Positions 819-57,371 of a stretch of DNA of 64,000 nucleotides are shown here, one piece after another. The notes beneath the pieces are model-generated. The model was not told the origin of the DNA, made no database searches, and was given only the letters and a program-made list of their open reading frames with translations. Origin of the DNA: an uncultured bacterium (GTDB lineage: Bacteria > UBA8481); assembly GCA_964499705.1 (NCBI GenBank), contig CAZCME010000010.1, positions 22,280 to 86,279 of the forward strand, read 5' to 3'. The position numbers and the translations under genes are program-made. How positions within the stretch are numbered: the first letter of the stretch is position 1; each line of letters opens with the position of its first letter.

Positions 819-1724
819 TTGTCCTGCCGTCTCGCGGCGGCGGGACTTATCGCGTGCGGAGCCATCCTGTGCGCGATTCCGGCGGCGGATGCTCAGCTTG
901 AGCTTCGTCGCGTGGTCGACTCGCCCGGTGAGTTGACCGTGGATATTCCTCCCGCGGCCGGTCCCAGGCGCGTGCGGATCCAGTGTTCGCCTCCTAAGAA
1001 CGGCCGCGTGTCGGCGCTCCTTATCTGGACCCCCCCGGAATACGCTCTCACCGCAAGAATCCAGAGACTGGGCATGGCCGATCCTTTCGCGCGCGCATCG
1101 GGCAGGAGCCCGATCGCGCTCGGCGCCGCGGTCGATACCGGCGAAGGGCCGTGCTTTCTCATGATCGATGAGCCGGCGGGCGGAGCGGATTCCGTTCAGA
1201 TTTCTCTCCAGTTGAACTGGTCGGGGCCGACAGGGGAGAGGCCGTGGCCGACAGTGAGCGTGGAAACAAGCGCGACGCGCGCCACGTTCGAGGTCAAGCC
1301 TCCGGTCTCGGCTCCGGCATCTCTCACCTGCCGCATCACGGACATATCCTGGACGGAAGGCGCGGATCTGGATCGCATGAAACTGATGCGCGAAGGATTG
1401 AAAATCCGTTTCGGATCGGCGGTGAACAAGGAGATGCTGGAAGGTGCGATCCGCTGCTCCATAGGCATGCCCGGCTCCCAGGACGGCCTGATCCGGTTCG
1501 AGGACGTCCGGGTTGAACTTCGGATGGAAGACCAGGAAGTTCGGCTCATCTTTCCTCCGAAACTGCTCTTCGCCAGACGCTCGATCGTCCGCGTCACCGT
1601 CATCGGAGACCGGGTCCTGTCGCGCGACGGCACATTCGTGGACGCGGAAGGATCCGGATTCAAACTGCCATCCGGCAATGGAATGCCGGGGGGCATCTTT
1701 CAATCGGAATTCATCGTGCCGTGA
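819..1724 (+). CDS. Hypothetical secreted protein (signal peptide ...CAIPAADAQ)
   Basis: N-terminal signal peptide. The overlapping antisense ORF 693..1703 is Arg/Pro-rich junk. No recognisable domain. Confidence 0.45.
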   Translation: MSCRLAAAGLIACGAILCAIPAADAQLELRRVVDSPGELTVDIPPAAGPRRVRIQCSPPKNGRVSALLIWTPPEYALTARIQRLGMADPFARASGRSPIALGAAVDTGEGPCFLMIDEPAGGADSVQISLQLNWSGPTGERPWPTVSVETSATRATFEVKPPVSAPASLTCRITDISWTEGADLDRMKLMREGLKIRFGSAVNKEMLEGAIRCSIGMPGSQDGLIRFEDVRVELRMEDQEVRLIFPPKLLFARRSIVRVTVIGDRVLSRDGTFVDAEGSGFKLPSGNGMPGGIFQSEFIVP

Positions 1725-1744
1725 CGGGCGAAGAAGGCCGCGGA

Positions 1745-2200
1745 TCAGAAAAGAGGATCGCCGTTTTGCTGTTCAAGGAGCCATTTCCCGGCTGAACGGA
1801 CGAAGCGGAATTCGGACAGGCCGCTTCGCCACTGCACCTCGCCGTCCTCGCGCGCTGACCGGCTGAGCCGCCACGCCGCCACCACGACGCCACGGTCTTC
1901 GTTTTCCATGATCTCGACATGCTCCGGAGTGAGATGGATCGTGATTCCGGTGTAGCGTTCCAGGTCCTGGTCGATCGATGACTTCAACGCCAGCCTGGAC
2001 GGCGCGTAGGACTCCGCCACCAGCTCGAACACACCGAACGAATTCTCGTCTTCGAGCGCGCGGCAGATGGATTCGAGGACTTCGACGAGCGCGGCATCGT
2101 GCGGAGGCCGGCTCTTCTCTTCCCTTACGATATCGTGTTCCTTCAGGCAGGACGCCAGGAGGAGGCAGGATAGAAGAAGGAGCGCGCAGTGGCCTTTCAT
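1745..2200 (-). CDS. Hypothetical lipoprotein
   Basis: Internal start (minus strand, read as cat at 2198-2200) gives MKGHCALLLLSCLLLASC with a lipobox Cys. ATGA overlap with the stop of the upstream oxidoreductase gene indicates translational coupling. Confidence 0.5.
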   Translation of the reverse strand: MKGHCALLLLSCLLLASCLKEHDIVREEKSRPPHDAALVEVLESICRALEDENSFGVFELVAESYAPSRLALKSSIDQDLERYTGITIHLTPEHVEIMENEDRGVVVAAWRLSRSAREDGEVQWRSGLSEFRFVRSAGKWLLEQQNGDPLF

Positions 2201-3204
2201 GGCTCGATCCAGCCGCCGCCGCCCTTCAGCGATCGGGTCAAGGCATTCAATGTTTTCACCACCGCCACACCCGACGCGCCGTCGGAGACCGGGCGCGCGT
2301 TGTCGCGCACGCACTCGACAAAGTGAATCGCCTCCTGCTTGAGCGGTTCGACGGAGCTGATCTTCGGGAGGAGAATATCGCCGGTGCGGATGGAGAGATA
2401 CTGGCCATAGGACCGGAACGGCTGGCGCTGTGTTTCCACGGTGCGATTGTAGATGCGGAGTTTTTCGGAGGACTCGCCATCGTCGATGACCGCCATTTTT
2501 TCCGTGCCGATGATGGAGAGCTCGCGGACCTTCTGCGGATCCAGCCAGGAAACATGGCCGTGAAACATGACGTCTCCGGAGTATCGCAGCGTGTAAAAAA
2601 CGACATCCTCGACGCCGGGCTGAAGATAACAGTTTCCGACGGCCTGCACCTCCACGGGCGCGCTCCCGGCAATGGCGTCGCCGATCGCGATGTCGTGCGG
2701 CGCAAGCGACCAGAGCGCGTTCTCGTGGGAGCGGACGATGCCGAGATTGACGCGGCGGGAATGGAGATAGCGGAGCGTTCCGAATTCTCCGGAACGAAGG
2801 CGTTTCATCGCTTCCTGATACGCGGGGTGATACAGGAGAAGGTGCCCCACCATGAGAATTCTTCCGCGCGCGTCGGCCGCTTCCGACAGCCGTTCGGCAT
2901 CTTCCGTCTTCAGCGCGAGCGGCTTTTCCACGAAGAGATGCCGGCCGGATTCGAGAACTTTGAGGCCGAGTTCCGCATGGGTTTCGGCGGGCGTGGCGAT
3001 AACCACGGCGTCGATATCGGCCGCCAGCGCGTCCTGGAAATCGGTCGACGTCGCGACTCCGGGATGATGTCGGGATGCTTCCCGCAGGCGTTCCCCCGAG
3101 GCGTCCACGAGCAGGGCAAGCTCCGCGCCGGTGGTTTCGGCGAAGATTCGGGCGAGATTAGGCCCCCAGTAACCGAGGCCGACGGCGGCGATCCGGACGG
3201 ACAT
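2197..3204 (-). CDS. Gfo/Idh/MocA-family NAD(P)-dependent oxidoreductase
   Basis: N-terminal Rossmann motif MSVRIAAVGLGYWGPNLARIF. EKPLAL is the conserved Gfo/Idh/MocA motif. 335 aa. Confidence 0.85.
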   Translation of the reverse strand: MSVRIAAVGLGYWGPNLARIFAETTGAELALLVDASGERLREASRHHPGVATSTDFQDALAADIDAVVIATPAETHAELGLKVLESGRHLFVEKPLALKTEDAERLSEAADARGRILMVGHLLLYHPAYQEAMKRLRSGEFGTLRYLHSRRVNLGIVRSHENALWSLAPHDIAIGDAIAGSAPVEVQAVGNCYLQPGVEDVVFYTLRYSGDVMFHGHVSWLDPQKVRELSIIGTEKMAVIDDGESSEKLRIYNRTVETQRQPFRSYGQYLSIRTGDILLPKISSVEPLKQEAIHFVECVRDNARPVSDGASGVAVVKTLNALTRSLKGGGGWIEP

Positions 3205-3224
3205 GAAATCGATGATAGCGGAGG

Positions 3225-3270
3225 AAGTATGAAGTATGAAGTATGAAGTATGAAGTATGAAAGTGTATGA
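3225..3270. repeat. Heptanucleotide tandem repeat (AAGTATG) x5 plus one degenerate unit, in the divergent intergenic region
   Basis: Units at 3225-31, 3232-38, 3239-45, 3246-52 and 3253-59, then aaagtgtatga. It lies between the minus-strand oxidoreductase start (3204) and the plus-strand epimerase start (3267). Confidence 0.8.
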
Positions 3271-4232
3271 TTGTCCCCATGCACATTCTCGTCACGGGAG
3301 CTTCGGGTTTCATAGGGCGGCGGTTTCTGGAGCTTCTGCCTCCGTCGTGGAGCGCGAGCGCGATCTGGTCCCGGCGGGAGGATTTTCCGGAATTCGTCGC
3401 GGGCCTGGATGGTTCGCGTATCAGGGCATTACGTTGCGACCTGACGGATCAGTCCGCCGTCGAGGGTCTCGCGGCCCGCGTGGATCCGCTGGACGCGCTG
3501 GTTGTCCTCGCGGCCAACGGAGATCCCGTGCGGTCGGTGTCGGATCCCGTGGCGGACCTGATGGAAACAGCGGTGACGGCCATCAACACATTCCGTTTCT
3601 TCCGGGCGGACAGGCTGGTTTACTTCTCATCCGGCGCGGTGTACGAGGGGCTGTCCGGAGCTGTCGACCCTTCCGTGAACATCCGCCCTGCGCTTCCTTA
3701 CGCCGTGACGCATTACGCGGCGGAGCGTTACGCGGACTACTTCCGGAGTTTGAACCGCTTCAGGCACGCGGTGATGCTCCGCTTCTTCGGCGCCTACGGT
3801 CCGCATGAACCCTCCCGCAAGATTTACTCGCGCCTCGTGCGGAGATTCGCGTTCGACCGCGAACCGTCGATTGTGCTGAAAGGAAATGGCCGGAACATCA
3901 TCGATGCCATGTATGTGGACGATGCCGTGCGCGCGATCATCAGCGTGCTGGCTTCTCCGGAGGCGGCGGGAACGGAGATCCTGGACCTGCCCGGCGGAAA
4001 TCCCATGACGATCGAGGAACTGGTGCGCGCCGCGAGCCGCGCCTGCGGACTCGGCGAAATTGCGCTCCGATACGAGGGGCAGGTCGCCGAGGATCATGCC
4101 TTCACGGCTTCGCTCGATGGATTCCAGGACCGTTTCGGCCGTATCCGGCTCACACCGCTCGATGAGGGAATCGGAGGCCTGCGGCGATGGTTGGAAGCCC
4201 GTTCCGCGCTCGCGAGCGAACCGTTGCGTTGA
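3267..4232 (+). CDS. NAD-dependent epimerase/dehydratase family protein (SDR)
   Basis: ILVTGASGFIGRRF glycine-rich NAD-binding motif. A YAVTHYAAERY (YxxxK-like) region. The start could be ATG 3267 or ATG 3279. Confidence 0.8.
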   Translation: MIVPMHILVTGASGFIGRRFLELLPPSWSASAIWSRREDFPEFVAGLDGSRIRALRCDLTDQSAVEGLAARVDPLDALVVLAANGDPVRSVSDPVADLMETAVTAINTFRFFRADRLVYFSSGAVYEGLSGAVDPSVNIRPALPYAVTHYAAERYADYFRSLNRFRHAVMLRFFGAYGPHEPSRKIYSRLVRRFAFDREPSIVLKGNGRNIIDAMYVDDAVRAIISVLASPEAAGTEILDLPGGNPMTIEELVRAASRACGLGEIALRYEGQVAEDHAFTASLDGFQDRFGRIRLTPLDEGIGGLRRWLEARSALASEPLR

Positions 4233-5495: not shown

Positions 5496-6967
5496 CGGGG
5501 AGTTCCCGAATTCCTGGCTCGACGATCCCGAAGCATCCGCTTCTCGTTTTCCTGCTTCTTCTCTTCGCCTGCGGCTCGACGCCGGCTCCCCCTTCATCTC
5601 CCGATTCTTCGCTCGGGCGGGTTCTCGAACCGCGAACGACGTGGATGGGATTGTATCTGAGCGAACAGAAGATCGGGTGGTCGAAAACCGCCATTGATCA
5701 GAACGAGCGGAAAAATCATACGCTCGTGAATGAAACCTTCATGGTCATGAAGATGATGGGAACGCGCATGGAAACGCGGTCCACGCTCTCGATCGAATTC
5801 ACGCCGAAACTCGAGCCCGTCGCCTATACGTTTTCTCTCAAGACCCCCATGTTCGCCGCGGACGCGGGCGGCACGGTGAAAGACGGCATCCTTACGACCT
5901 GGACCAGGACTCCGCAGGGGAAACGAGAGCAGGAAATCAAGCTTGACGACGAACTCGACATCTTCGGCCTGGCCGACATTCGCCGCGCGGCCGAGGGATA
6001 CAAGGTCGGGCAGATCTTCGAAGGGAAGATCTTCGAGCCGAACCTCTTTGCCGTGGTTCCGTATCGCGTGGAAATTCTCGACACGAAGGCGATCAAGATG
6101 GGCGCTTCGGAGGAGACAGTATTTCGCGTGAAGATGAAGATGAGCGAGATCGAGTCGATGTCTTATTCCCTGGCCAACGGCGATGTCATCCGGGTGGAAG
6201 GGCCGATGGGGATCGTGATGAAGAAGGAGACGGAGGAATCCGCGAAGGACATGACCGCGTCCGAAAACATCACCGACCTGATTCTCGCGTTCTCGGTCGA
6301 TGCCGGCAGGATCGTGGAAAATGCCGGATCCGTACGGCGGGCCGTGATGAGCGTGACGGGATTGAACGGGCCGTTGTTTCCCGGAGGCGCGCAGACGACC
6401 GCTTCGGCGTCGTCGACGGATACCGGCGCGGCAACGATCGTCACCGTCGATCTCGATGGCCCGAAGGAGAAGGTCGAGGATCTCTCGGAATACCTGAAGC
6501 CGTCCACGCATATCCAGTCGGACGATCCCCGCGTGATCGACAAGGCGAAACAGATCGCGGGCGCGGAGAAAAATCCTGCGAAGATCGTCGCGAAGATATT
6601 CTCATGGGTTAACGGAAATGTGGTGAAGGAACCGGCCTTCACCCTGCCCTCGACGGTGGATGTCCTGGCGACGATGCGCGGAGACTGCAACGAGCATTCC
6701 GCCCTGATGTGCGGCCTCTTGCGCGCGGCGGGCGTGCCGACCCGCATCGCGGCCGGTCTCGCGTACATGAAGGGGAAATTCTATTATCACGCGTGGAACG
6801 AGTGCTACTTCGACGGGAAATGGATTCCCGTGGATGCGACGTTCGGAGAAAATCCGGCCGGCGCCCTGCGGTTGAGGATTTCGGTGGGGGAACTGGAGGA
6901 GCAGATGAAGATTGCCGCGGTCGCCGGGAAAATCTCCATGAGAATCCTCGAGGCGGAAGCGCCCTGA
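5492..6967 (+). CDS. Lipoprotein with a C-terminal transglutaminase-like cysteine protease domain
   Basis: Signal/lipobox-like LLLLFACGS. C-terminal GDCNEHSALMCGLLRAAGVPTR...YHAWNECYFDGKWIPVDAT carries the Cys-His-Asp transglutaminase-core triad. Confidence 0.7.
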   Translation: MTGSSRIPGSTIPKHPLLVFLLLLFACGSTPAPPSSPDSSLGRVLEPRTTWMGLYLSEQKIGWSKTAIDQNERKNHTLVNETFMVMKMMGTRMETRSTLSIEFTPKLEPVAYTFSLKTPMFAADAGGTVKDGILTTWTRTPQGKREQEIKLDDELDIFGLADIRRAAEGYKVGQIFEGKIFEPNLFAVVPYRVEILDTKAIKMGASEETVFRVKMKMSEIESMSYSLANGDVIRVEGPMGIVMKKETEESAKDMTASENITDLILAFSVDAGRIVENAGSVRRAVMSVTGLNGPLFPGGAQTTASASSTDTGAATIVTVDLDGPKEKVEDLSEYLKPSTHIQSDDPRVIDKAKQIAGAEKNPAKIVAKIFSWVNGNVVKEPAFTLPSTVDVLATMRGDCNEHSALMCGLLRAAGVPTRIAAGLAYMKGKFYYHAWNECYFDGKWIPVDATFGENPAGALRLRISVGELEEQMKIAAVAGKISMRILEAEAP

Positions 6968-31100: not shown

Positions 31101-31149
31101 GATCGACCACGAGGATTTTCTGGAACTGGGGAGACGCTACGGGCAGTAA
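25105..31149 (+). CDS. Giant secreted multi-domain protein (2014 aa), paralog of the preceding gene
   Basis: Same architecture and collinear conserved blocks: HHPKRPDHPGEAAAFRAL vs HPKPYDHPQEAAAQRF, GPEVAGIDS in both, Asp-box repeats, beta-helix repeats, FN3-like modules, and a near-identical dockerin-like tail ...DIGKNGVDGVIDHEDFLELGRRYGQ. Confidence 0.8.
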   Translation: MIPPAMAPRFLPVPMRFFLLSAILFIALSVPSWSAPLPDHKSISKIAWKHGAIHAGDRFAGLTREEWTEYFASRPRQILPDSATRDVDETVVARRLGLAPSLVRKVRTERSVDYRRMLEFSPPLLARVFWRTHHPKRPDHPGEAAAFRALQQRSEDGQIVENGLANAARQLEEMQENVRAGISPSFPGDPVPGEGPEVAGIDSTRWQALGPGNVPGRIRSAIIFPDSNIKVIGSVGGGIFRTTNGGQSWTAVNDFLANLAIGCMAQSPLQRDTIYAGTGEGFYNSDRIRGDGIFKSTDSGQTWTQLSATASNSSYRYVNRIAIDPGNVNILLAGTQTGIFRSTNAGASWSATAGAGEAMDVDFHPNNASFAVASGRNGNTWYSTDGGQNWTAATGIPSEANNRVEVAYAPSNGGVVYASCQRNSGELYRSTDSGVTYSLQNTGSSYLGSQGWYDNCLWVDPVNPDHVATGGIDVWRSTNAGANLTQISDWSQNSSGLSAHADHHILLSHPDYNGTTNREFYTGSDGGLAFTNDITTVAQTSGWTLLRNNIVTTQAYGGAGNPAGVFWLGTQDNGTPAYFGDSNAWTRHSSRSGDGGHCAADQLDANYLYGEYVYLTIYRSSNGGATATDIYSGITDADNSATAFFIAPFILDPNDQGRMYAGGVQLWRTSDVKATPPTWSSVKASNGNKISAIAVAPGNPNVIWVATSNSTITGANASEVFYTANGLEVSPTWTQVDGNGVTLPNRYCSRIAIDPRNPAHVYVTFGGYNTNNLYVTSDTGTTWTNVNATANPALPTAPIRTVVFGNYSSDSVYVGTEVGIFASANAGAAWSPSQDGPANVSVDQLFWVGADTLHAATHGRGLWRISVPRPDTTTPPPIDTTGPNVWYVNDTSTTGDSFTSGFGSDANSGVSRTAPKRTIAAVCAFLTTGDTVYIDAGTFGETMVAGSCTAVAIIDTMNVTLVGVDSLVTLLDPGDSSSGSNIRGIYADTISGLTIRNLRVSNARTGIEWYNVDTSTMASVDMVRNSAYGLLLFGGSESILVSTCGGSNNAQGIRILSSSRNTIRENVLESAAGAGISNEGSSNNAFIGNTARLNNEEGIFLTGSSGNSITGNVLAANGSDGVYLTSNSNGNRIEGNHIAANLQGILIDGSSGNVVAQNELSANTTYQIQLGIGASADTIERNNITTSSGKPESGVQNQTIARFDATRNWWGTADSATIRARIRGTGRDSVVSVPFRLGRVDTRPGFDTLAPRAPDTVAASDLSDTSVRVTWSTVGLNEDGSAGNGDLAGYRVYQSSSPDSTSWILRGTVSTATRTYDDSGLARMATYFYRVTAFDNASFENQSFFTDSIIGVVPGAIDSTGANVWYVNDSSTSGDSFTSAVGLVANHGLLPSAPKRGLAGVIPYLTAGDTVYIDAGTFQDSNLVLSVSDVIVEGKDSLATIVDANYETCFILRGAHRSIFRKVQIVNANYPGGLGQDHGAAIRLENSDSVVIASDSFLQNTWGVNLALGSDSATVTNCVFNPQTQFAVYVESGPQAVITGNTMISFGIGIENRSDSGIVAGNTMTNTVVNVTSSDSIRILGNSFSNVTITLTTAQRCDIESNTITTGGIVLNDDVLLCRLNGNSVTAVGATCFDIAGDTNTLINNFAFGSGVSGQGFWLKTAAAGNILTSNTASAKRNFGYLVQGTSNILDANLAVSCQDGGYRISGDTNVLNANTARTITAGAGFVVEGRNNVLRGNHASACSDSGFHLNGAVDNILSANHADSNLGYALAIVGSSSGNTVRKNSFVTSPTRPDSGVLLVSVAAVDLTRSWWNTTDSASIRNRIRGAGVVLAMYTPFRFGVIDTGYGADTVAPDSPVNLIVDTPAGQIRISWTAPSVNEGGTGGATGIAKYHIYRSRAADTTDWIGPIGETTATVYSDTRIATDTIYYYRVTAEDSASYPNRGFYSAIVSGSVPRVFADFSGDSTVNSADVPLILPRYRQPGLYNLIYDIGKNGVDGVIDHEDFLELGRRYGQ

Positions 31150-31151
31150 AG

Positions 31152-31314
31152 GGGGACATTCTCCAACATTACAACATTGAGATTGCTGCTACTTACGTGA
31201 GGTGGATGCCGGTTTCTTCGTAACATCATCATTTTGAATGTGGCAATGTGGGAGAATGTCCCCCTTACGTAAGTCCCTGTAATCTCAATGTTGGAATGTT
31301 GGAGAATGTCCCCT
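31152..31314. repeat. MITE-like / structured inverted-repeat element with GGGGACA...TGTCCCC termini
   Basis: 31152-31184 ggggacattctccaacattacaacattgagatt is the reverse complement of 31282-31314 with one mismatch in 33 bp. A third partial arm copy (gggagaatgtccccc) sits at 31249-31263, and an internal palindrome cttacgtaag is present. It lies between the giant gene's stop and the phosphohexomutase start. Confidence 0.6.
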
Positions 31315-31325
31315 ACTATTCCCCC

Positions 31326-34057: not shown

Positions 34058-34115
34058 ACCGATTTCACATTTCACATTCTCGATATAAATCTGGAATGTG
34101 AAATGTGAAATCGGT
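34058..34115. terminator. Bidirectional terminator hairpin between convergent genes (perfect 22-bp inverted repeat)
   Basis: accgatttcacatttcacattc (34058-34079) and gaatgtgaaatgtgaaatcggt (34094-34115) are exact reverse complements around a 14-nt loop. It lies between the + gene ending 34051 and the - gene ending 34121. Confidence 0.5.
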
Positions 34116-50779: not shown

Positions 50780-51045
50780 CTATGCCCTGACCTCCTGTGT
50801 GATCCTGCCGCGATCATAGGGAGAGATAATACCGGCGTCTACAGCGGATTGGCCCGCATAGAAGTTCCCCATCCGAAGGCGGGAAATTTAACAGGATGGG
50901 CAGGATTTGAGAGGGATGAAAACCACTCCCCGATAACAGGACTACATTACCTTCATTTCCACTGAAAATCGATCCTGCCTATCCTGCCTATCCTGCTCAT
51001 CCTGTTAATATTGTTTGGAACTTCTGTGGCCCGCGGATGGGCCCG

Positions 51046-53429: not shown

Positions 53430-54578
53430 ATGAAGAAATTGTCCGGATCCCTGATCATCGCGCTCGCCTTGATGGCCGCGGTCTTCACATCGTCCGCGCC
53501 CGCGCGCATCAAGCTTGTCACTCTGCCGGATCGGGCGAACATCTCCCTCTCCATCGAGCATCCGACGGCGAATCTCATCCAGGAAGAACGCGTGCTGTCG
53601 CTGCAAAAGGGTGTGAACCAGGTCGATTTCAACTGGCAGGGCGTGCAGATCGATGCGTCGGCGGTGCTGCTGGAACCGTTGGAACATCCCCAGGAAGTGA
53701 CGTTGATTTCCGTTCAGTATCCGCCCGGAGAAAACGCGCTCGTGTGGGAAGTCTATTCGCCGCGGGCTATGGCGGAGCGGGTACGCGTGACCTATTTTCT
53801 CGACGGGATCGGGCGCGAAGTGACCTACAGGGCGGTCGCCGACAAGGACGAGGAGAAACTCTCCTTCAAGCAGTACATCCGCCTTCGGAATGATTCCGGA
53901 GAGAAGCTCGACGGCGTGAAGATCCTCTCGGGATTCGCTCCGGAATATGCGACCGATCTCGATAACGGGGAGATGCGCCAGACTCTGGCAGGATCGAACA
54001 CGATCCCGCTGAAGAGGACCTTCACATGGGACTCCCTGGAAAAGCCTCACGATCCGTCGAAGGAACAGATGAACGTCGGCGTGCCGATTCACTACGTGAT
54101 CGCGAATACCGCGGAAGCTGGGCTCGGCCGCGCGGCGCTGAAATATGGAAAGGTGCGCGTCTTCCAGGATGACGGCCGGGGCGGGACGGCGTTTCTCGGG
54201 GAGGACTGGGGCGAGTACGCTCCGGTATCGAAGGATATGAAGGTGGGAGTCGGCGAGTCGAGGGATATCGTCGTGACGCGGAAGCAGCTGGAGCTGGAGC
54301 GGACGCGCGAGCGTCGCAATGCGCGGAACGAAGTGGTGATCTACGACACGAAGGAGAGCTATGAGGTTGTCGTCGAGAACCGCCGGAACAAGGATGCCGT
54401 CATCACCGTCGTCGATCACTTCGATGAAACATGGGATGTCGCGTCCGCGTCGCAGAAGTGGGAGCGCAAGGATTACCGGACGCTGAAGTTCGAAGTGCCC
54501 GTTCCGGCATCGGACTCCGTGACGGTGAATTTCGTCATCGCGCGCAGCAACCTGCGTCCTTCGGGAGCGCTTCGATGA
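53430..54578 (+). CDS. DUF4139/DUF4140-like secreted protein (MuiA-like), paralog 1
   Basis: RBS GAGGGAGG before ATG 53430. Signal peptide. Shares conserved blocks with the next two genes (VxFxWxG..IDxxS, YxxxGLxWxADYEGLVD, VKxxNxSGE.xDxxxIxLVxGxIHLVENIA). Confidence 0.6.
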   Translation: MKKLSGSLIIALALMAAVFTSSAPARIKLVTLPDRANISLSIEHPTANLIQEERVLSLQKGVNQVDFNWQGVQIDASAVLLEPLEHPQEVTLISVQYPPGENALVWEVYSPRAMAERVRVTYFLDGIGREVTYRAVADKDEEKLSFKQYIRLRNDSGEKLDGVKILSGFAPEYATDLDNGEMRQTLAGSNTIPLKRTFTWDSLEKPHDPSKEQMNVGVPIHYVIANTAEAGLGRAALKYGKVRVFQDDGRGGTAFLGEDWGEYAPVSKDMKVGVGESRDIVVTRKQLELERTRERRNARNEVVIYDTKESYEVVVENRRNKDAVITVVDHFDETWDVASASQKWERKDYRTLKFEVPVPASDSVTVNFVIARSNLRPSGALR

Positions 54579-55921
54579 CGGGGAAATACCAAATACCGAA
54601 TATCAAATATCAGATATCAAAAGTGGTGATTGCGGCGGGCGTCATTTTTCTCGCTTCGCTTGCTGCGGATGCCCGCGTCGGGCTCGTCACCGTGCCGCGC
54701 CGGGACGCGGTCCAGGTCACGATCTACAATTCCGCCGACTTGACTCTTGTTCGGGAGCAGCGGCTGTTGACGCTAGCCAAGGGCAGGAACAAGCTGGAAT
54801 TTTCCTGGGCAGGGACGCTCATCGATCCGACCTCGATCCAGTTCGAGGCCAAAACGCACGCGGACAAGGTGGAAGTGATCGATGTTTCGTTTCCGGCACA
54901 GGCTCCGAATGCGCTCGTCTGGAACGTGGAATCGGAGCAGGAAGGCGAGGTCCTGGTGGAGATTTCCTACTTCACATCGGGTCTCACCTGGTCCGCCGAC
55001 TATGAAGGGCTTGTGGACGCGGCCGGGAAAAGGATGAAGATCGCCTCGTTCGTGAAAGTGACGAACAGGTCCGGAGAAGAATACGACGGCGCGCAGGTAA
55101 GGCTTGTCGTCGGGAAGATTCACCTCGTGGAGAATATCGCGGAACTGGCGAACCGGGCGGGACGGCCGGTGCCGGCTCCCGTGCAGTCGCGAGCACGCGC
55201 AATGATGAGGAGACCATCGGCGGCCGCGCCTGCGCCGGCGATGGGAATGCTGATGGCGGAGTCGGCCGGGCCGCCGGAGATCATCCGCGAAGGCCTCTCG
55301 GAGTATTTTCTCTACACGGTCGCGGGAGTTCATGCCGTTCCCGACCAGTGGTCGGTCCGTTGGCCGAACTTCGCGAAAGACAATGTGGAGATCGAGAATT
55401 TCTATCGGTATGAACAGGGCCGGTATAACCAGCCCCAGCGGTTTGTGCGCCTCCGGAACGACAAGCCGCACAACCTCGGCGAGGAACCGCTGCCCGACGG
55501 CGAGGTCTTGATCTACCAGTCGCGTGAAAACAACACCCGATACTTTTTCGGTCGATCGCTCTCCAAATACATTCCGATCGGCGAGACCTGGGAGATCGAC
55601 CTGGGAGCGGATCCGGAAGTCGTCGTGAAGCCGACCCTGGCAAGATGGGCCGTCACGGATGTGGAATTCCACGATAACAGCGAGCCATCGGGCTGGGATG
55701 TGAAAGAGGACTGGACCATCGAGATCCTCAACTCCCGCAACCAGCCGATCTCCATCGAAGCCGACCAGAACTTCAGCGGCGACTTTGCTTTTGCAAGCGA
55801 AGCGAGTCATGAGAAATACGATCTCGACTCGATCCGCTTCAAGAGAACGCTCCAGCCGCAATCGAGCGAAGTGCTCTCCTACTCCATCACCACCCGCAAG
55901 GGCACCCGTGCTCGGAGGTAA
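54575..55921 (+). CDS. DUF4139/DUF4140-like secreted protein, paralog 2
   Basis: ATG overlaps the upstream stop (ATGA). Signal peptide VVIAAGVIFLASLAADA. VTIYNSADLTLVREQRLLTL, ...EFSWAGTLIDPTSIQFEA, and C-terminal ...TTRKGTRARR shared with paralog 3. Confidence 0.6.
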   Translation: MTGKYQIPNIKYQISKVVIAAGVIFLASLAADARVGLVTVPRRDAVQVTIYNSADLTLVREQRLLTLAKGRNKLEFSWAGTLIDPTSIQFEAKTHADKVEVIDVSFPAQAPNALVWNVESEQEGEVLVEISYFTSGLTWSADYEGLVDAAGKRMKIASFVKVTNRSGEEYDGAQVRLVVGKIHLVENIAELANRAGRPVPAPVQSRARAMMRRPSAAAPAPAMGMLMAESAGPPEIIREGLSEYFLYTVAGVHAVPDQWSVRWPNFAKDNVEIENFYRYEQGRYNQPQRFVRLRNDKPHNLGEEPLPDGEVLIYQSRENNTRYFFGRSLSKYIPIGETWEIDLGADPEVVVKPTLARWAVTDVEFHDNSEPSGWDVKEDWTIEILNSRNQPISIEADQNFSGDFAFASEASHEKYDLDSIRFKRTLQPQSSEVLSYSITTRKGTRARR

Positions 55922-55926
55922 ATACG

Positions 55927-56046
55927 GGGACAGTATACTGATTTTCCGTGAATTTATTCACGGCTGTCTGCGCGCCCTCCGCCGCCCCGCTGATGGCGGC
56001 GGCTTCTTCTCAATCCGTCCGGTCGGAATAATAGTATACTGTCCCC
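55927..56046. repeat. MITE-like inverted-repeat element (14-bp perfect terminal inverted repeats GGGGACAGTATACT / AGTATACTGTCCCC)
   Basis: 55927-55940 and 56033-56046 are exact reverse complements. An internal hairpin ccgtgaatttattcacgg. It shares GGGGACA...TGTCCCC termini with the element at 31152-31314. It begins 5 nt after the stop of paralog 2. Confidence 0.6.
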
Positions 56047-56090
56047 ATATTATTCTCATCGCTCTGCTGGGGACGGCGGCGTATGCGCGC

Positions 56091-57371
56091 ATGGGGATCG
56101 TCACGATCCCGAAGCGCGATGCCGTGCAGATCACCATTTACAATTCGGCCGATCTGACGCTCGTACGGGAACGACGGCTCCTCACCCTTTCGAAGGGGAA
56201 GAACCGGCTGGAGTTTTCCTGGGCGGGCACGCTCATCGATCCCACATCGATCCAGTTCGACGCGAGGACGCACGCGGATGAAGTCGAGTTGATCGATCTC
56301 TCCTTTCCACCCGGCGCTCCGAATGCGCTCGTCTGGAATATCGAATCGAAATATGAGGGCGAAGTGGCGGTGGAGATCTCCTATTTCACCTCGGGCCTTT
56401 CCTGGTCGGCGGATTACGAAGGGCTCGTCGATGCGGACGGCAGGAAGATGAAGATGGCATCCTACGTCAAGGTGACGAACGGATCCGGCGAAGATTACGA
56501 CGATGCGCAGATCAGGCTTGTCGTGGGGACGATTCACCTCGTGGAGAACATCGCGGACCTGGCGAACAGGGGAGGGCGGCCGATACCGGTGGAAGTGCAG
56601 TATGAGGCGCGGGAGGAGATGAGCGAGTCCATGATGGATTGGGATAAAAGTGCCATCGCCATCAGCGGCTCCATGGATGGCGTCCTGGGAAGCGGCGCGT
56701 ATGCGCTCGACGCCATTGCTCCCCCCGAGATCATCCGCGAAGGACTCTCCGAATATTTTCTCTACACCGTCTCCGGAATTCATGCGGTGCCCGACCGGTG
56801 GTCCGTCCGATGGCCGAATTTTTCGCAGGACGGGATCGAGATCGAGAATTTCTATCGCCAGGAGGAAGGCCGCTACGACGACGCGCGCCGCTTTGTCCGC
56901 CTGAGAAACGACAAGGCGCATCATCTGGGCGAGGAACCCCTGCCGGATGGCGCGGTGCTCGTGTATCAAGTGCGCGCGCGGGGCGAACGGATCTTTCTTG
57001 GTCGGGCAAATTCGAAATACATTCCCATCGGAGAAACCTGGGAGATCGACCTGGGCGCCGATCCGGATGTGACCGTGAAGCCGAGGCTTCTGAAACGCTC
57101 CGTCGAGAGCGTCGAGTTCAACAATCGAGGGAATCCCGCCGGATGGGACATTCGCGAGGAGTGGCGGATCGAGATCCTCAATTCCCGAGACGGAGCCATC
57201 GAGATCGAGGTCGACAGGAATCTTGACGGGGATTTCGATTTTCGCTCCGACGTCCGTCACGAGAAATACGATCTCGACACGTACCGGTTCAAGAGAATCC
57301 TGAAGCCGCAGGAGCGTGAGGAAATTCCCTATGTCGTGACAACGCGGAAGGGAACCCGCGCCCGGCGATGA
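56091..57371 (+). CDS. DUF4139/DUF4140-like protein, paralog 3 (5' end apparently disrupted or displaced by the inverted-repeat element)
   Basis: From ATG 56091: MGIVTIPKRDAVQITIYNSADLTLVRERRLLTL.... An in-frame upstream signal-peptide-like stretch IILIALLGTAAYA runs into the element's right terminal repeat, with no ATG/GTG/TTG. Confidence 0.5.
   Translation: MGIVTIPKRDAVQITIYNSADLTLVRERRLLTLSKGKNRLEFSWAGTLIDPTSIQFDARTHADEVELIDLSFPPGAPNALVWNIESKYEGEVAVEISYFTSGLSWSADYEGLVDADGRKMKMASYVKVTNGSGEDYDDAQIRLVVGTIHLVENIADLANRGGRPIPVEVQYEAREEMSESMMDWDKSAIAISGSMDGVLGSGAYALDAIAPPEIIREGLSEYFLYTVSGIHAVPDRWSVRWPNFSQDGIEIENFYRQEEGRYDDARRFVRLRNDKAHHLGEEPLPDGAVLVYQVRARGERIFLGRANSKYIPIGETWEIDLGADPDVTVKPRLLKRSVESVEFNNRGNPAGWDIREEWRIEILNSRDGAIEIEVDRNLDGDFDFRSDVRHEKYDLDTYRFKRILKPQEREEIPYVVTTRKGTRARR

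Follow-up and report, generated by a model that had tools for sequence, protein, structure and literature searches.

A palindromic repeat, probably of Y1 transposase-linked origin, lies at the start of a tandem DUF4139 gene

We analysed a 64-kb window (the whole stretch of DNA under study) of contig CAZCME010000010.1, assembly GCA_964499705.1, from an uncultured bacterium. The window holds three DUF4139 genes in tandem, and a 121-base hairpin at 55926–56046 lies between paralogs 2 and 3, two duplicated secreted-protein genes. Paralog 1 has a GGAGG-ATG start at 53431, and the start of paralog 2, ATG 54575, overlaps the paralog 1 stop. The TAA stop of paralog 2 (55919–55921, + strand) is followed by four bases (ATAC) and then by the first G of the hairpin, whose right arm directly continues into the paralog 3 codons H-IILIALLGTAAYA-R-M-GIVTIPKRDAV. 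The element occupies the exact place expected for the start codon and n-region of the paralog 3 signal peptide. In our view the hairpin is probably a non-autonomous, MITE/REPIN-like palindromic repeat derived from the terminal inverted repeats of IS200-like Y1 (HUH) transposase genes, and paralog 3 would most likely be read through it.

The arms GGGGACAGTATACT (55926–55939) and AGTATACTGTCCCC (56033–56046) are exact reverse complements over 14 nt, as a first-pass annotation of this DNA had stated, and the inverted repeat continues to 28 nt per arm with an 86% match (55921–55948 and 56024–56051). That annotation had also placed the element just past the paralog 2 stop, correctly except that its start at 55927 is one base late. 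By chance, about 0.05 perfect 14-nt inverted repeats within 200 nt would be expected per 64 kb. The full left arm (55926–55945) consists of the core GGGGACAGTATAC and a semi-conserved TGATTTT, its first 14 nt pairing with 56033–56046; the right arm (56027–56046) consists of AATAATA and GTATACTGTCCCC. Outside the arms, the left flank AAATAC (55920–55925) partly pairs with the right flank ATATTA (56047–56052), and together they contribute four extra base pairs; like the arms and the inner hairpin, these flanks are features without strand. Two in-frame near-cognate codons, ATT ATT, lie at 56049–56054 and overlap the right flank.

The interior of the element contains the hairpin that the first-pass annotation had noticed, an AT-rich CCGTGAAT-TT-ATTCACGG at 55946–55963, and a GC-rich segment of 63 nt (55964–56026, no strand assigned), which occurs once in the window. 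The segment has CGG at both edges, so that its placement is ambiguous by 3 nt, and it amounts to 21 codons that are free of stops in the paralog 3 frame. Inside it lies a second, terminator-like GC hairpin (55979–56012, + strand) with 8 G-C pairs and an 8-nt loop (stem-loop 55979–56002), followed by a weak T-rich tail, CTTCTTCTCA. The main stem is itself AT-rich and is followed by ATATTATTCTC; a terminator scan fits only the inner GC hairpin with its weak tail. The predicted RNA fold of 55915–56060 has an energy of −61.3 kcal/mol on the + strand (z = −6.0) and −65.0 kcal/mol on the − strand (z = −7.3), and none of 200 shuffled sequences folded as stably. A promoter scan around the element found none, and Rfam covariance models at gathering thresholds gave no match in the window. 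Although the heptamer GGGGACA occurs 12 times in the window, against 8.0 expected, it is not enriched overall, and the 14-mer arm has no further copy in the window with up to three mismatches.

The hairpin belongs to a family that is found in many other genomes. We scanned one genome per bacterial and archaeal species with the pattern GGGGACAGTA-N16..76-TACTGTCCCC and found at least 120 loci, compared with about 33 expected by chance. Among the matches listed, at least five of the eight unconstrained inner positions were complementary in 115 of 125 elements, and the eight bases outside the feet were on average complementary at 5.7 of 8 positions, compared with 2 expected. Several positions that the search had left free were conserved as well (AAAT at −6 to −3, TAC at 11–13, and T-A-T/A-T-T-C at 15–20). 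A matrix built from 258 arms of other genomes, with the window arms excluded, scored the left arm at 40 bits and the right arm, on the − strand, at 34 bits. The outer AAAT of the left flank fits the family consensus (AAAT-NN outside the GGGG foot), and no other site in the window exceeded 12 bits.

Hosts among the matches listed include Alpha-, Gamma- and Deltaproteobacteria, Nitrospiraceae, Acidobacteria, Elusimicrobia, Bacteriovoracaceae, Sulfurimonas, Aminicenantes and Hatepunaea, as well as another Hydrogenedentota genome (L066). Several genomes carry multiple copies, one Hatepunaea genome at least 16. The copies lie in separate intergenic regions, between genes in all orientations, and a stop codon is often only a few to 40 nt away. 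Their centres range from 3 to about 70 nt. The window copy, at 121 nt, is long yet inside the family size range. The same genomes also hold variants with other bases after GGGGACA(G/C), together with nested or partly duplicated arms. Seven loci with short family copies, searched against Rfam at E-value thresholds, gave only spurious miRNA-precursor matches well below the thresholds of those models, and a full-text literature search for the 13-mers found the longer core in no paper.

Some members of the family are arranged in more elaborate ways. In an alphaproteobacterial metagenome-assembled genome (L052, 3846–4202), five GGGGACAGTTAC-type hairpins follow one another in tandem, one about every 85 nt, and form a cluster of the family that resembles a bacterial interspersed mosaic element. 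Nested hairpins, in which an outer layer that also starts with GGGGACAG and ends with CTGTCCCC encloses a complete inner element, occur in L023 (3363–3464), L058 (962–1007 and 1653–1698), L074 (4003–4082) and L077 (2610–2713); in L058 such nested palindromes lie on both sides of a Y1 transposase gene. Partial tandem duplications of one arm and its outer flank stand beside complete elements at L045, L047, L069, L071, L084, L088 and L108, and may reflect either cleavage and rejoining chemistry or replication slippage. Finally, a contig classed as viral in IMG/VR (L142) carries two identical, typical family copies 600 nt apart (5531–5604 and 6126–6199); either this contig is in fact bacterial, or a phage or prophage carries the family.

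Elsewhere, the family is associated with Y1 transposases. When the genes neighbouring the hairpins were clustered, IS200-like Y1 (HUH) transposases emerged as the one recurrent mobile-DNA family, and there was no recurrent DDE transposase among them; the other recurrent neighbours were common families (response regulators, ABC ATPases, LysR), which we take as background. Among the matches listed, Y1 transposase genes were found by tblastn in 8 of 120 loci of 8 kb. In three of these loci (L036, L058 and L062), family hairpins or a half-site stand immediately on both sides of the Y1 gene, and at L104 and L105 the Y1 gene is flanked by GGGGTCAG/CTGACCCC variants. The neighbouring transposases match Pfam Y1_Tnp (E = 4e-12) and reach 76 bits, against a cut-off of 80, with the NCBIfam model REP_Tyr_transpos, for repetitive extragenic palindromic (REP)-associated tyrosine transposases (RAYTs). 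Their closest solved structure is E. coli TnpA-REP (PDB 4ER8).

This arrangement has a precedent. RAYT-like genes flanked by long terminal inverted repeats, rather than by GTAG-tagged REPs, have been termed 'TIRtrons' that encode 'TIRYTs' (Di Nocera et al. 2013, PMC3733652). Many TIRYT repeats contain GGGGWSAS and form moderately abundant families in some genomes, often as dimers or clusters (PMC3733652). Most TIRYTs fall in TnpA-Y1 subclass 2.1, with the consensus GGGG[AT][CG]A[CG] (Quentin et al. 2018, PMC6006769); a C-terminal helix-turn-helix or Bac_DnaA_C-like domain after the Y1 core has been reported for this subclass. Both outer ends of the window element agree with the published motif (GGGGACAG at 55926–55933 and CTGTCCCC at 56039–56046). 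Because GGGGACAG fits the motif, and because L036, L058 and L062 show the TIRtron arrangement, we assign the element to the GGGGWSAS kind of TIRYT repeat. The first-pass annotation, which had proposed a mobile inverted-repeat family with GGGGACA/TGTCCCC feet, was therefore right in kind: at least 120 same-core hairpins exist in species-representative genomes, some of them in multi-copy genomes and some beside Y1 genes, and the element is not unique.

The closest relative, a locus from a Logan assembly (L001), encodes a paralog 3 protein that is 93% identical, at a synonymous divergence (dS) of 0.31. It carries the same hairpin at the same site but in a form 63 nt shorter, a single, nearly perfect stem (AATATGGGGACAGTATACTATTTTTCCGTGAAT-TT-ATTCACGGAAAATTAGTATACTGTCCCCATATT). 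Adding the GC-rich block to this form, between the inner hairpin and the right arm, gives the window copy; in the relative, the inner hairpin is the tip of a continuous stem of about 28–33 bp. The right outer flank is also kept. The insertion is thus old and precedes the split of the two sampled lineages; the orthologous locus lacking the insertion, with which the first-pass annotation had suggested comparing the element, did not turn up, and the insertion is not a recent one.

Both the gene and the hairpin are constrained between these two genomes. Paralog 3 has a dN/dS of 0.12 at this dS, which shows it to be functional, and purifying selection extends to the hydrophobic core of its signal peptide. 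Within the hairpin, 4 of the 58 shared positions differ, where about 15 would be expected if the sequence were neutral (P about 3e-4), and none of the 28 core-arm positions differs (P about 3e-4). Even with the 63-nt indel between them, neither genome has a stop within the element in the paralog 3 frame.

The signal-peptide hydrophobic core and cleavage-motif codons of paralog 3 (IILIALLGTAAYA|R; 56049–56090, + strand) align with the signal peptides of homologues. In the alignment, every homologue has its hydrophobic core, A-x-A cleavage motif and first mature residues (AR[VI]GLV...) opposite the continuation H-IILIALLGTAAYA-R-M-GIVTIPKRDAV. Farther homologues have an ordinary M-K-x n-region right before the core. 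Between the element and ATG 56091, the frame contains no ATG, GTG or TTG, as the first-pass annotation had recognised; what it had missed is that the same frame is open through the entire element, from GTG 55908 to 57371, and further back to TTG 55785. This GTG (55908–55910, + strand), a putative start, is the sole canonical start that reaches the signal-peptide core. It lies 11 nt upstream of the paralog 2 stop, giving a 14-nt overlap with the end of paralog 2, and is conserved in the closest relative; the gene callers of two independent assemblies start paralog 3 there (L001, at 1034, 466 aa; L002, at 3463, 487 aa). The 5' end of the gene, which had been described as removed or displaced, is thus not simply missing, although the element does sit where the start codon and n-region should be. 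ATG 56091, in contrast, which had been taken as the first available start, reads GTG (valine) in the relative; since it aligns with the first mature residues of homologues, which have AR[VI]G there, it lies inside the mature protein and is not the ancestral start, and the methionine is a lineage-specific V-to-M change.

Paralog 3 is 67% identical to paralog 2, and its mature part (56091–57371, + strand) matches Pfam PF13598 with 39.4 bits. In a distant syntenic locus (L004), only two DUF4139 genes precede the same TPR, 2Fe-2S and MoaD-MoaE genes, so paralog 3 is a later tandem duplicate. Such tandem paralogs occur often: there are three in L003 (1089–4899), overlapping by 4 nt, and the two in L004 lie at 1369–3845. 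The same small TPR protein follows the DUF4139 genes in both loci, joined in L004 by a 2Fe-2S thioredoxin-like protein and a MoaD-MoaE fusion; this conserved neighbourhood may be a hint to the function of secreted DUF4139 proteins. In paralog 2, short AT-rich tandem repeats (AAATACC / AATATC / AGATATC, 54586–54622) lie in the coding n-region of the signal peptide (KYQIPNIKYQISK) and look like the intergenic simple repeats found elsewhere in the window.

Our explanation joins these observations as follows. A TIRYT supplied in trans would have mobilised the element as a single-stranded DNA hairpin and left no target-site duplication, by analogy with RAYT/REP and IS200/IS605 systems. One copy would have become fixed at the junction of paralogs 2 and 3 before the two sampled lineages split, having landed in place of the original start codon and n-region of paralog 3. 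Most likely, paralog 3 would now be translated from GTG 55908 by termination-reinitiation coupled to paralog 2; the ribosome would pass through the element, and the residues encoded there would serve as a long n-region. The 63-nt GC-rich segment is a lineage-specific in-frame indel in the centre of the element. When transcribed, a hairpin of about −60 kcal/mol placed 4 nt past the paralog 2 stop would act as a barrier or processing site that uncouples the expression of the flanking genes, as REP hairpins do in operons, and the extra GC hairpin in the window genome may add partial termination.

Several observations weigh against parts of this account, and read-through is its weakest step. The open frame suggests translation through the element, but a given frame through family elements is free of stops in 33% of cases, and we dropped the open frame as proof in itself because one third of such frames are open; an in-frame, stop-free indel of 63 nt has roughly a 1-in-6 chance. 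The substitutions within the hairpin are mostly non-synonymous (3 vs. 1–2), so it is the nucleotide sequence or structure that is conserved and not the encoded peptide. Insertion is deduced from family membership, as the sole close ortholog already carries the hairpin and no orthologous empty site was found; a metagenome scan for the lineage-specific arm GGGGACAGTATACTNNTTTTCCG returned three matches, all of them family members in unrelated organisms, and neither relatives of the locus nor an empty site. The 64-kb window contains a single copy of the family, apart from a doubtful relative at 31152, and no Y1 transposase gene. The window copy has also degenerated somewhat: it pairs at 5 of 8 inner positions, where 7–8 is usual. 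Lastly, the transposases near family members in other genomes have about 70–100 residues after the Y1 domain that give no Pfam helix-turn-helix match even at E = 5, although small domains of this type are easily missed.

With the element still taken as a family member, paralog 3 could instead initiate at a near-cognate ATT (56049 or 56052) if the folded hairpin brought GGAGG (55914–55918) alongside, a hairpin-bridged ribosome-binding site of the kind likened to that of phage T4 gene 38. In its favour, GGAGG lies 7 nt before one foot, ATT ATT lies directly past the other and the flanks add four base pairs; ATT ATT is conserved in the closest relative, and this start would yield a short signal peptide of ordinary length. 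We nevertheless consider it unlikely, because ATT is a very rare initiator, ATT 56049 is itself paired in the extended stem, and GGAGG, which reads GGAAG in the relative, is also constrained as paralog 2 codons. That paralog 3 has lost its export signal, and is either cytoplasmic from ATG 56091 or a duplicate in decay after the element destroyed its 5' end, would agree with the lack of a canonical start between the element and 56091 and with the ATG here and GTG in the relative, both of them usable starts. The low dN/dS of the whole gene speaks against decay, however, and the hydrophobic core upstream of 56091 (56049–56090) has three synonymous changes and one non-synonymous change with the A-x-A motif kept. 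All homologues are moreover of the secreted type, with mature residues aligned at 56091, which makes a loss of export quite unlikely.

The remaining alternatives concern the origin of the hairpin. A locally evolved RNA regulatory structure of no mobile origin (an intercistronic terminator, a stabiliser or an RNase III site), resembling the family by convergence, would fit a very stable intra-operon fold that starts 4 nt past a stop codon, includes the terminator-like GC hairpin and is conserved beyond the neutral rate. Convergence cannot explain a core of 13–20 nt and a flank consensus in at least 120 hairpins of many phyla, or the flanking of Y1 genes; the terminator-like part is missing in the closest relative and Rfam gave no match, so that this reading is largely refuted and very improbable. 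A classical miniature inverted-repeat transposable element (MITE), moved by a DDE transposase and inserted with a target-site duplication, is hardly credible: terminal inverted repeats, a short non-coding body of variable length and a multi-copy family in other genomes are what one would see, but the flanks AAATAC and ATATTA are inverted complements and not direct repeats, as are flanks throughout the family, and the only recurrent mobile-DNA neighbour is a Y1/HUH transposase. The MITE-like insertion put forward in the first-pass annotation thus survives in outline, as a transposase-linked repeat, and not as a classical MITE; the target-site duplication that it had proposed to look for was not found, and none is expected from a Y1 enzyme. 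Two further candidates were discarded. Family membership rules out a palindrome made by the tandem duplication itself, and a canonical REP, or a hairpin of two inverted REPs (REPIN), is ruled out by flanks that carry neither a GTAG nor a CGTC tag.

Beyond the TIRYT-repeat origin and read-through that we favour, it is possible, though doubtful, that the repeat now serves, through co-option, as the translated 5' end of paralog 3, supplying start-codon context and n-region and tolerating a 21-codon in-frame indel, and that the core is shared across phyla through horizontal spread of TIRYT repeats or recognition by a conserved host factor. If true, either frequent horizontal spread or host-factor recognition would contrast with the lineage-specific, vertical picture of REPINs and RAYTs.

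A possible second hairpin with a GGGGACA/TGTCCCC foot, consisting of one left and two right arms, lies at 31152–31313 (no strand assigned). It is part of a long AT-rich inverted repeat with an expanded centre (31141–31324), which begins a single base past the stop codon of a gene for a 2014-aa surface protein. Its left arm pairs best with the second right arm (31281–31313), and a diverged extra right arm lies at 31237–31263; this doubled right arm resembles several family members, including those with the partial arm duplications described above. The first-pass annotation had placed it in one family with the 55926 element, and the two do have the 7-nt foot in common, but its membership is unproven. 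Its foot, GGGGACAT, agrees with 7 of the 8 positions of the published GGGGWSAS motif, the eighth base being T, while the element scores below 12 bits with the family matrix and matches nothing beyond the 7-nt foot. In a relative that is 86% identical in the downstream gene (L128), the corresponding sequence ends ...GTATGACACC right before the ATG, compared with ...GAATGTCCCC in the window; the contig ends 26 nt upstream of the gene, has AAGTGGCAAAGTGGTAGTATGACACC before the ATG and lacks the TGTCCCC foot. A scan of viral contigs for GGGGACATTC...GAATGTCCCC gave three distinct matches, about the chance level, without family features. Only these two hairpins in the window have a GGGG[AT][CG]A foot, a pairing that is unlikely by chance, and we lean slightly against the 31152 element being a diverged relative of the family. 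In the database, the downstream phosphoglucosamine-mutase-like gene (P0121, 462 aa) is called from ATG 31296, which falls within the right arm of this element.

Other repeats in the window were noted in passing. At 3224–3281, in a divergent intergenic region, five tandem GAAGTAT heptamers are followed by a TGTCCCC that abuts ATG 3279 of an epimerase-like gene; this third intergenic TGTCCCC is without a partner arm. A hairpin with a 27-bp stem, a 4-nt loop and TTTCACA repeats (34058–34115) stands right after a TPR/Peptidase_MA_2 gene. Because L128 has a GC-rich terminator-like hairpin (2746–2790) in its place, AT-rich hairpins of this kind appear to turn over between close relatives. Finally, an AT-rich intergenic region at 50888–51008 contains a 19-nt inverted repeat (TTAACAGGATGGGCAGGAT / ATCCTGCTCATCCTGTTAA) with 83-nt spacing, whose right arm includes ATCCTGCCT in three to four tandem copies.

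If the explanation holds, it accounts for an odd gene start: the place of a normal paralog 3 start codon would be taken by a transposase-linked palindromic repeat, and the long N-terminal extension of the annotated 487-residue protein should be read in the light of that repeat. GGGGWSAS repeats, described in 2013 from few genomes, now appear as a very widespread family of hairpins whose conserved core is much longer than the motif and extends to Hydrogenedentota and other poorly studied phyla. The GGGGACAGTATAC hairpins offer a defined substrate, and the transposases of L062 and L036 candidate enzymes, for the study of DNA recognition by a little-studied branch of the Y1 family.

Among known repeats, the Correia elements (NEMIS) of Neisseria resemble the window element in general build. 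They are 100–150 nt long with inverted ends, come in longer and shorter versions, the difference being an internal segment, and are co-transcribed with neighbouring genes to form RNA hairpins. Unlike the window element, they have TA target duplications, and their sequence is unrelated; to our knowledge, no Y1 transposase is linked to them. In E. coli, Liang, Rudd and Deutscher reportedly found in 2015 that ribosomes stall, and a gene is translated less, when a REP follows within about 15 nt of its stop codon. Rickettsia palindromic elements and intragenic REPs provide a precedent for an in-frame palindromic repeat in a gene that stays functional (PMC3733652). The window element differs from Rickettsia palindromic elements in its position at the extreme 5' end, before the signal-peptide core, and in that its translation is deduced; the sequences are not related.

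REPs and REPINs with their RAYTs are a further comparison. Like our family, they are short, multi-copy extragenic palindromes that lie mostly 3' of genes and stand on both sides of a single-copy Y1 transposase gene; a REPIN, too, is a hairpin of two inverted units, and the best PDB match of the transposases beside our family is TnpA-REP. A canonical REP, however, has an unpaired GTAG (GT[AG]G) or CGTC tetranucleotide at one end of a 20–40-nt palindrome (PMC3733652), whereas our family has neither tag, keeps its conserved motif within the stem and forms far longer stems (20–33 bp). The family core is common to several phyla, whereas REPIN-RAYT systems are described as mostly vertical and lineage-specific (10.1101/2022.05.22.493013). 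TIRYT repeats are the nearest counterpart. A lone copy in 64 kb with no transposase in the window differs from what is described for them, and Pfam did not detect the helix-turn-helix of subclass 2.1 in the neighbouring transposases, where so small a domain is easily missed. The foot motif, the long inverted repeats flanking RAYT-like Y1 genes, seen here as TIRtrons at L036, L058 and L062, and, in other genomes, the dispersed copies in moderately abundant families, often as dimers or clusters, are common to both. Where the published work gives an 8-nt motif only, the family described here has a longer core, GGGGACAGTATAC-N-TATTTC with an AAAT-NN flank, across many phyla.

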